This document shows positions 3,133 to 4,185 of a DNA stretch of 12,569 nucleotides, piece by piece. The DNA is taken from positions 1 to 12,569 of IMG/VR virus record IMGVR_UViG_2778261541_000004; one strand, written 5' to 3'. The number at the start of each line of letters is the position of its first letter. Position 1 is the first letter of the stretch. The translations under genes and the position numbers were made by a program. The DNA is from a virus. Lineage: Duplodnaviria; Heunggongvirae; Uroviricota; Caudoviricetes. The notes under the pieces were generated by a model. The model was not told the origin of the DNA and did no database searches. It saw only the letters and a program-made list of their open reading frames with translations.

Positions 3133-4185
3133 ATGAAAAATACTGTAAAAATAAACAGTGTTGATTTAATCAACGCTGATTGCCTGCATTTTATTCAGTC
3201 CCTGCCTGATGATTCCATTGACCTGATTGTTACCGATCCGCCGTACTTCAAGGTGAAACCCAACGGCTGGGACAATCAGTGGAAAGGGGACGAAGATTAC
3301 CTTAAGTGGCTGGACCACTGTCTGGCCCAGTTCTGGCGGGTGTTAAAACCTGCCGGAAGCCTTTACCTGTTCTGTGGGCATCGCCTGGCATCTGATATTG
3401 AGATCATGATGCGTGAACGTTTCAACGTGCTTAACCATATCATCTGGGCGAAGCCGTCCGGACGTTGGAATGGGTGTAATAAAGAAAGTCTGCGTGCATA
3501 TTTTCCAGCCACAGAGCGCGTTCTGTTTGCTGAACATTACCAGGGGCCATATCGCGGCAAAAGTGACGGCTATGCGGCAAAAGAAAGGGAACTCAAACAG
3601 CACATAATGGCACCGCTGATTTCGTATTTCAGGGATGCTCGTGCCGAACTGGGTATAACGGCAAAACAAATTGCCGAAGCCACAGGTAAGAAAAATATGG
3701 TTTCCCACTGGTTTGGTGCCAGTCAGTGGCAGTTGCCGAATGAGGCTGACTATCGGAAGTTACAGGCACTGTTTTCCCGTATAGCGGCAGAGAAGTTTCA
3801 GGAACAACAACTGGAACAACCACACCACCAGCTGGTGGCATCTTATGATTCACTGAATCGCAAATATTCTGAATTGCTGGATGAGTTTAAATCTCTCCGG
3901 CGCTATTTCTCCGTATCAGTCTCCGTGCCTTATACCGATGTCTGGATGCATAAACCCGTTCAGTTCTACCCGGGTAAACATCCGTGTGAGAAACCTGCGG
4001 ATATGCTCCGGCAAATAATCAATGCCAGTAGTCGACCTGGTGATCTGGTTGCTGATTTTTTTATGGGATCCGGTTCCGCAATAAAAGCAGCAATGGCGCT
4101 GGGGCGTCGGGCCTTAGGTGTTGAGCTTGAGTCAGAGCGGTTTAACCAGACAGTGAAAGAGATAAACGAGCTGGTGGGGAAATAA
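3133..4185 (+). CDS. DNA methyltransferase, beta-class, probably N6-adenine
   Basis: 350 aa. DPPY (motif IV) sits near the N-terminus in LIVTDPPYF, and an FxGxG AdoMet motif (DFFMGSGS) sits near the C-terminus; this order defines beta-class amino-methyltransferases. An HTH-like segment (ITAKQIAEATGKKNMVSHWF) lies in the middle. No adjacent restriction endonuclease gene. Confidence 0.9.
   Translation: MKNTVKINSVDLINADCLHFIQSLPDDSIDLIVTDPPYFKVKPNGWDNQWKGDEDYLKWLDHCLAQFWRVLKPAGSLYLFCGHRLASDIEIMMRERFNVLNHIIWAKPSGRWNGCNKESLRAYFPATERVLFAEHYQGPYRGKSDGYAAKERELKQHIMAPLISYFRDARAELGITAKQIAEATGKKNMVSHWFGASQWQLPNEADYRKLQALFSRIAAEKFQEQQLEQPHHQLVASYDSLNRKYSELLDEFKSLRRYFSVSVSVPYTDVWMHKPVQFYPGKHPCEKPADMLRQIINASSRPGDLVADFFMGSGSAIKAAMALGRRALGVELESERFNQTVKEINELVGK

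Follow-up and report, generated by a model that had tools for sequence, protein, structure and literature searches.

We analysed a 12,569-nt stretch of caudoviricete virus DNA (the window; positions 1 to 12,569 of IMG/VR record IMGVR_UViG_2778261541_000004), which carries a DNA methyltransferase gene preceded by a structured leader and followed by a phage lysis cassette (Table 1). The methyltransferase open reading frame (ORF) is intact. By motif order its product is a beta-class enzyme: the catalytic motif IV lies ahead of motif I, which binds S-adenosylmethionine (AdoMet or SAM), and a target-recognition domain (TRD) sits between them. A first-pass annotation of this DNA had proposed that DPPY precedes FxGxG, and direct reading of the protein (aa 35-38 and aa 310-314) agrees with it. 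Residues 29-341 matched Pfam N6_N4_Mtase with E = 1.1e-40 (cutoff 26.7 bits). D35 and G312 were invariant in 80 relatives, and P36, P37, Y38 and F310 were at least 90% conserved.

We found that solved beta-class enzymes match the protein in two blocks (about aa 9-115 and aa 282-335), and that the Rossmann-fold core superimposes on them; the approximately 150 residues between the blocks are an insert. In an AlphaFold2 model made with 80 relatives (pLDDT, the predicted local distance difference test score, averaging 94.6) the insert forms helices at 147-173, 177-184, 190-194, 204-223 and 238-255 and folds as an XRE-type helix-turn-helix (HTH) domain. The HTH-like segment that had been noticed between the catalytic and AdoMet-binding regions was therefore recovered in the model; by sequence its signal was sub-threshold (Pfam HTH_3 at aa 167-193, E = 0.042). 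M.BceJIV, M.MboIIA, CcrM and M.RsrI, all solved beta-class enzymes, have unrelated target-recognition parts, and none has an XRE-type insert. Residues 135-260 contain 19 lysines and arginines and 15 aspartates and glutamates. In linker 1 the modelled helix starts at aa 147, and pLDDT falls to 63-79 at aa 131-150. In linker 2, R257 and F259 were at least 90% conserved among the 80 relatives. Many distant homologues, aligned to window aa ~238-256, have tandem (REYEDLR)n heptads, in differing numbers, just before a conserved LRRPF in this linker, and the length of the linker-2 helix therefore differs between relatives.

Table 1. Features of the methyltransferase locus, in window coordinates (aa, residues of the methyltransferase)
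Feature	Position	Strand	Evidence
Truncated antiterminator Q, first 120 of 250 aa followed by 13 out-of-frame residues	2600-3001	+	Pfam Antiterm; alignment to full-length 2EC1 Q
12-bp microhomology at the junction of the 1.49-kb deletion	2948-2959	+	blastn against L001 (2EC1 prophage)
Conserved structured 5' leader RNA, 141 nt, up to the methyltransferase AUG	2995-3135	+	Covariance-model match, 152.8 bits
Leader P0, AUGGGC / GCUCAU	3004-3009/3045-3050	+	
Leader P1, 10-12-bp hairpin	3010-3021/3029-3040	+	
Leader P3, extended hairpin	3075-3077+3079-3087 / 3094-3098+3101-3104+3106-3108	+	
Leader P4, long closing helix	3058-3062+3064-3068 / 3120-3124+3127-3131	+	
Leader alternative pairing	3005-3009/3076-3080	+	
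M.EcoGII-family beta-class N6-adenine DNA methyltransferase gene, intact, 350 aa	3133-4185	+	ATG-initiated ORF, stop included
Motif IV, DPPY, catalytic, aa 35-38	3235-3246	+	Direct reading
Linker 1, aa 135-159, charged, partly helical, from Rossmann core to TRD	3535-3609	+	Ungapped alignment to M.EcoGII
TRD, aa 160-237, XRE/Cro-C1-type helical bundle	3610-3843	+	
HTH proper within the TRD, aa 177-194	3661-3714	+	
Linker 2, aa 238-260, helix leading back to the core, ending in conserved LRRxF	3844-3912	+	AlphaFold2 helix 238-255
Motif I, FMGSG (fits FxGxG), AdoMet-binding, aa 310-314	4060-4074	+	Direct reading
Intrinsic terminator just after the methyltransferase stop, GGCCAC-GTAG-GTGGCC + TTTTTATTT	4192-4217	+	Terminator scan; fold -12.3 kcal/mol
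Lysis cassette	4252-5428	+	Pfam Phage_holin_2_1, Phage_lysozyme, Phage_lysis
Holin	4252-4467	+	
Lysozyme	4467-4964	+	
Rz	4949-5428	+	
Rz1, lipoprotein-like ORF embedded in Rz	5181-5366	+	ORF list

Sequence comparison places the gene in the well-characterised M.EcoGII family, whose HTH domain has also been published already, so that little in the finding itself is new. M.EcoGII, from a prophage of E. coli O104:H4 C227-11 (GenBank EGT69837.1), is a 349-aa enzyme that acts on double-stranded DNA, single-stranded DNA and RNA and methylates adenine whatever its sequence context (Murray et al., PMC5778455). The lysogen keeps it silent, constitutive expression is harmful, and genes similar to it occur in phage 1720a-02 and further enterobacterial phages (PMC5778455). 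Its HTH target-recognition domain was described in 2024 (PMC11551740). The window protein is about 80% identical to it end to end with 2 gaps (N-terminal core 89%, TRD 77%) and differs at 70 of 350 residues, 18 of them in the TRD. Two of the differences, N98 and V130, fall in the published dimer interface (residues 97-110, 116-140). The two enzymes share the beta-class motif order, nearly the same length, a predicted architecture in which the Rossmann core is split by a four-helix HTH TRD with charged linkers, and a lambdoid-prophage setting with no endonuclease. Unlike that of M.EcoGII, the window prophage has no intact Q, late promoter or packaging genes. Two reconstructed ancestors, Anc291 and the deeper SUPREM (Anc284), were 88% and 70% identical to the window protein, and a neighbour-joining tree put it beside Anc291 within the M.EcoGII clade. 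Both are non-site-specific and dimeric, SUPREM with enhanced RNA activity (PMC11551740); unlike the natural window allele, they are laboratory reconstructions.

The gene is widespread. Annotated phage methylase genes had nucleotide identities of 99.2% (cdtI), 99.1% (mEp460 and Ayreon) and 97.1% (SfV, orf48), and the gene for WP_061316108.1 of E. coli 2EC1 was 100% identical to 3133-4185; all of these lie in the same place between Q and the lysis genes. The four phages are intact, whereas the Q/promoter segment and the small ORF that precede the gene are missing from the window copy. Stx2c-converting phages carry an 85% version. Of 5426 complete E. coli genomes searched, 1266 had a match, which reached 100% identity in strains 2EC1 and 2020N21-246; across Enterobacterales, more than 3000 protein clusters matched.

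The first-pass annotation had held that the target sequence cannot be read from the sequence. That statement is superseded, as homology and the position in the tree both point to any adenine. The window enzyme likely has no target motif, because of its overall identity to M.EcoGII and its place in a clade bracketed by three enzymes found by experiment to be non-specific. The XRE-type insert would give broad, sequence-independent binding to nucleic acids, as is thought for M.EcoGII, and nearly every adenine would be methylated. The strongest competing explanation is that the window allele is site-specific and that its HTH reads some recognition sequence, as in M.PflMI (site-specific, CCANNNNNTGG), the nearest characterised site-specific relative, which has a similar predicted TRD fold and belongs to a restriction-modification system. 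XRE-type HTH domains do mostly read specific sequences, and the TRD here is similar rather than identical to that of M.EcoGII. The gene is also mosaic: compared with the Stx2c-phage allele, nt 2948-3547 were ~99% identical and nt 3548-4147 ~75%, which places a recombination boundary near codon 139 and implies that TRD alleles have been exchanged. However, M.PflMI is only ~27% identical to M.EcoGII. Both charged linkers, which M.PflMI does not have, are present and ungapped in the window protein, and the bracket of non-specific enzymes reaches down to the much deeper SUPREM. We therefore regard site specificity as improbable. In the divergent half, synonymous divergence (dS) was ~2 and the ratio of nonsynonymous to synonymous divergence (dN/dS) 0.07-0.08, TRD included, values that indicate strong purifying selection on the HTH domain.

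We compared the locus with its intact relatives. In phages mEp460 and Ayreon, the E. coli 2EC1 prophage and an Stx2c phage the gene order is DUF968, antiterminator Q, a promoter-like site, a hairpin with a U-run, a hypothetical ORF, a second terminator, a small ORF, a spacer, the methyltransferase, a terminator (also annotated in Ayreon), holin, lysin and Rz. The promoter-like site, TTGCAT-17-TAAGAT, was found 32 bp after Q in loci L001 (the 2EC1 prophage), L002, L003 and L005 and is absent from the window. Prophages of Klebsiella, Salmonella and Pantoea have Q and holin of other Pfam families, yet the block of small ORF, spacer and methyltransferase is unchanged between them. The Qin prophage of K-12 has DUF968 and Q with cold-shock genes in the methyltransferase slot; the methyltransferase is therefore late-operon cargo, occupying the slot of stx in Stx phages. 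The small conserved ORF (63-75 aa, MLKQQDMTETA...CQLILTQLVxAGL; L001:11647-11850, L005:3123-3350, L086:2629-2850, L088:2661-2852, L090:2659-2853) looks winged-helix-like by eye, has no Pfam match and is invariably followed, 148-150 nt further on, by the methyltransferase, regardless of the type of Q or holin. Its product may be a partner or regulator of the enzyme.

In the window this arrangement is damaged. By blastn against the intact 2EC1 prophage, window 1649-2959 corresponded to L001 9014-10324 and window 2948-8048 to L001 11816-16916, thus 1.49 kb is missing from the window. The deletion took the C-terminus of Q, the late promoter-like site, two terminators, one hypothetical ORF and most of the small ORF, of which the last ~35 nt remain (2948-2982). 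The window Q has neither the second of the two Antiterm repeats present in full-length Q nor its CXXCXGXG zinc-finger domain. A generic promoter scan of the window gave no sigma-70-like promoter in 2400-4500. Further downstream the large terminase (6760-8085) is truncated to 441 aa, and of the 294 positions in its nuclease domain only 98 are left. The window resembles E. coli prophages up to 8048, and the DNA beyond matches effector cargo (NleG, EspW) of enteropathogenic and enterohaemorrhagic E. coli, of the kind that follows prophage tail-fibre genes. As such cargo normally comes after the tail-fibre genes, the head and tail genes have been deleted. The effector region (8049-12058) contains an EspW-like ORF (9196-10254) and two NleG-like stretches (8587-9066, 10333-10983).

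An exact 41-nt probe for the deletion junction had no match in the GTDB species-representative genomes, and of 70 viral contigs whose methyltransferase gene has exactly the 5' end seen in the window, not one contained the junction. No complete E. coli genome covered 80% or more of the window. The window prophage is thus a remnant in which the methyltransferase ORF, its leader and its terminator are intact. Because Q is truncated and the late promoter is deleted, the methyltransferase copy is most likely silent and merely carried along, in a prophage that is decaying within an attaching/effacing E. coli-like genome. Some read-through from the early operon could still reach it, since the deletion also removed the terminators that part the gene from that operon.

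The spacer before the start codon was conserved across genera better than the coding sequence and showed no codon periodicity. The 141-nt leader folded with a minimum free energy of -56.9 kcal/mol (z = -3.2), and the 3' strand of its closing helix (CGCUU..UGAUC) stops 1 nt before the AUG. We built the structure by hand from single-sequence folds and then tested it for covariation. With a MAFFT alignment, 83% of cells were paired, falling to at most 44% when partners were slid, and 18 of 40 pairs had compensatory changes; the 78 compensatory cells (shuffle mean 26) were reached in none of 500 shuffles. RNAalifold on the same alignment recovered only P1 and the long-range UGGGC/GCCCA helix. An alignment fitted to the covariance model (141 positions, 38 pairs), which is biased towards the structure it was fitted to, gave 90% paired cells against at most 46% with slid partners, compensatory changes in 21 of 38 pairs, and 107 compensatory cells against a shuffle mean of 25.6, again reached in 0 of 500 shuffles. 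Wobble-to-Watson-Crick changes were valid on the + strand only.

A scan of species-representative genomes yielded 80 loci with 35-82% protein identity. In a profile search the leader was present in about 40 of these, nearly always ending at the methyltransferase ATG. When the covariance model was run over 550 kb it produced 49 matches, one per locus, each on the strand of the gene and immediately upstream of the methyltransferase; the Qin prophage had none. The 21-nt core of the leader was found in at least 120 viral contigs, with the methyltransferase start 130-133 nt downstream in 112 of the 116 that could be evaluated. The remaining four (L188, L226, L252, L271) had the 5' hairpin (P0/P1) alone, followed by AT-rich DNA with a 237-aa ORF replacing the methyltransferase, so cargo has been swapped by recombination inside the leader. 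No Rfam 15 family matched the leader at gathering thresholds in a search of the whole window, and a search of 2900-3200 with hits accepted up to E = 10 gave noise only (E >= 4.6). Sequence-string and topic searches, which cannot prove absence, found no description of it in the literature. Judged by covariation, the leader is a real RNA structure and apparently an uncatalogued one.

It could be argued that the 141-nt element is a DNA-level signal, or a spacer conserved by chance and moved by recombination, rather than an RNA regulator. The upstream 173 nt are 100% identical in the window, 2EC1 and the Stx2c phage and are partly a shared mosaic block, as such an explanation would have it. We consider it very unlikely, given that length and position are kept across genera at 52-82% protein identity, that the element occurs once per locus and always on the gene's strand, and that the number of compensatory cells, the loss of pairing when partners are slid and the strand-specific wobble changes all fit an RNA.

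The RNA-bearing loci had no Shine-Dalgarno-like tetramer where one would normally stand ahead of the start codon; the closest, at -16, occurred in seven loci with the usual leader-ATG junction. The leader probably acts as a gate on the translation of a toxic enzyme. Two partners, equally conserved and mutually exclusive, are open to the UGGGC of P0, which is invariant: the nearby GCUCA and the distal GCCCA, likewise invariant (99.6% paired; three rare compensatory cells). Such exclusive partners may represent the logic of a riboswitch or of a switch worked by a protein. Candidate triggers are a metabolite (SAM or S-adenosylhomocysteine, SAH), the small winged-helix-like upstream protein, and the methyltransferase itself, as an enzyme that both binds RNA and methylates it. 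It is possible, though less likely than not, that the leader represents an undescribed type of cis-acting regulatory RNA specific to the M.EcoGII family, with a two-domain, switch-like fold that gates translation and whose last helix would cover the stretch ahead of the AUG.

Two further observations concern the leader region. A GATC (Dam site) at 3128-3131 lies in the last helix, 1 nt before the ATG, and is near-invariant across genera (CUGAUCyAUG). The Xenorhabdus/Photorhabdus loci (L119-L135, L142) have no covariance-model match and no Shine-Dalgarno sequence but carry another conserved upstream string, CCAGAGAG..GTCAGCGTCGAT, which is possibly a diverged form of the leader.

The HTH had been read as either a target-recognition or an autoregulatory element. 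The first role is published for M.EcoGII (PMC11551740); for the second, nothing supports binding to an operator. On the autoregulatory explanation the HTH would, also or instead, repress transcription of its own gene, as is done by C proteins and, in some methyltransferases, by an N-terminal HTH. This we regard as highly unlikely: the HTH is exactly at the TRD position of beta-class enzymes, its matches to C proteins reflect the generic XRE fold and are no better than those to phage repressors, and there is no sigma-70-like promoter within 700 bp upstream on which an operator could act. The sole palindrome found, 20 bp at 3081-3100, was rejected as an operator, being the P3 RNA hairpin with covarying pairs and G-U wobbles that are sensible only on the + RNA strand.

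We found no endonuclease gene adjoining the methyltransferase anywhere in the window (ORFs, Pfam and a defence-system scan, in which the only match was the methyltransferase itself); its neighbours are truncated Q upstream and holin, lysozyme and Rz downstream, as expected from the earlier description of it as an orphan. The upstream DUF968/HNH-like protein (1537-2586), which has a weak HNHc_6 match, belongs to a PHROG labelled HNH endonuclease and after the deletion lies just ~550 bp from the gene, was rejected as the cognate nuclease of a restriction-modification pair and can be practically dismissed, since DUF968 and the methyltransferase occur independently (Qin has ydfU (DUF968) and ydfT (Q) and no methyltransferase, Klebsiella relatives the methyltransferase and no DUF968), Q, a promoter, terminators and two ORFs intervene in intact relatives, PADLOC gave no match for DUF968, and with a non-specific methylase there is no cognate site that a nuclease could leave uncut.

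Elsewhere in the window, near its left end, the sole Rfam match at gathering thresholds was a C4 antisense RNA (RF01695; 102-189, + strand; 80.1 bits, E = 8e-15) of the P1/P7 immunity type.

Taking these results together, we are confident that 3133-4185 encodes an M.EcoGII-family N6-adenine methyltransferase with an HTH TRD; it is probably an anti-restriction cargo of the late operon behind a leader that gates translation, and most likely a silent passenger here. In intact phages the enzyme would be made only late in lytic growth, once Q-modified RNA polymerase passes the terminators after the late promoter. Progeny genomes would then be methylated before packaging, and this would blunt N6-methyladenine (m6A)-sensitive restriction in the next host. 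In the lysogen the enzyme would be kept off because it is toxic; late, Q-dependent expression agrees with the published silence and toxicity of M.EcoGII. The structured leader, whose last helix stops 1 nt short of an AUG with no Shine-Dalgarno sequence, probably lowers translation further. Protection of phage DNA from host restriction, suggested in the first-pass annotation, accordingly stands for the family as a proposed role and probably does not apply to the window copy, as its prophage has decayed. Hia5-type enzymes and Mom of phage Mu are functional analogues, with broad adenine modification by phage enzymes, and Mom resembles M.EcoGII in being silent in lysogens and toxic. The Hia5 type has alpha-class motif order and Mom a different chemistry, and the TRD is homologous to neither.

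Several points weigh against this reading. The differences from M.EcoGII include 18 of the 78 TRD residues, and the mosaic boundary gives the TRD and C-terminal half only ~75% nucleotide identity to the Stx2c-phage allele, so a changed specificity of the window allele is conceivable. The TTGCAT-17-TAAGAT site was found by eye and by pattern, and a generic promoter scan of the intact prophage missed it; we infer a late promoter there from its conservation and from depositor-annotated terminators. The reference sequences of M.EcoGII, Anc291 and SUPREM were machine-read from a PDF supplement with a few evident reading errors (NHH for NHI, for example), and identities to them hold to about ±1%. 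Finally, the anti-restriction benefit has the status of a proposal in the literature, in which we found no in-phage test of the methylase role.

M.EcoGII is a common tool for chromatin footprinting, MadID and RNA labelling. For the gene described here, 'non-specific adenine methyltransferase, M.EcoGII family, probably silent here' would be a better annotation than 'site-specific DNA-methyltransferase'. The leader RNA could matter more than the gene: it might be a new regulatory RNA class, and it could offer a direct experimental handle on how phages hold a toxic enzyme off.

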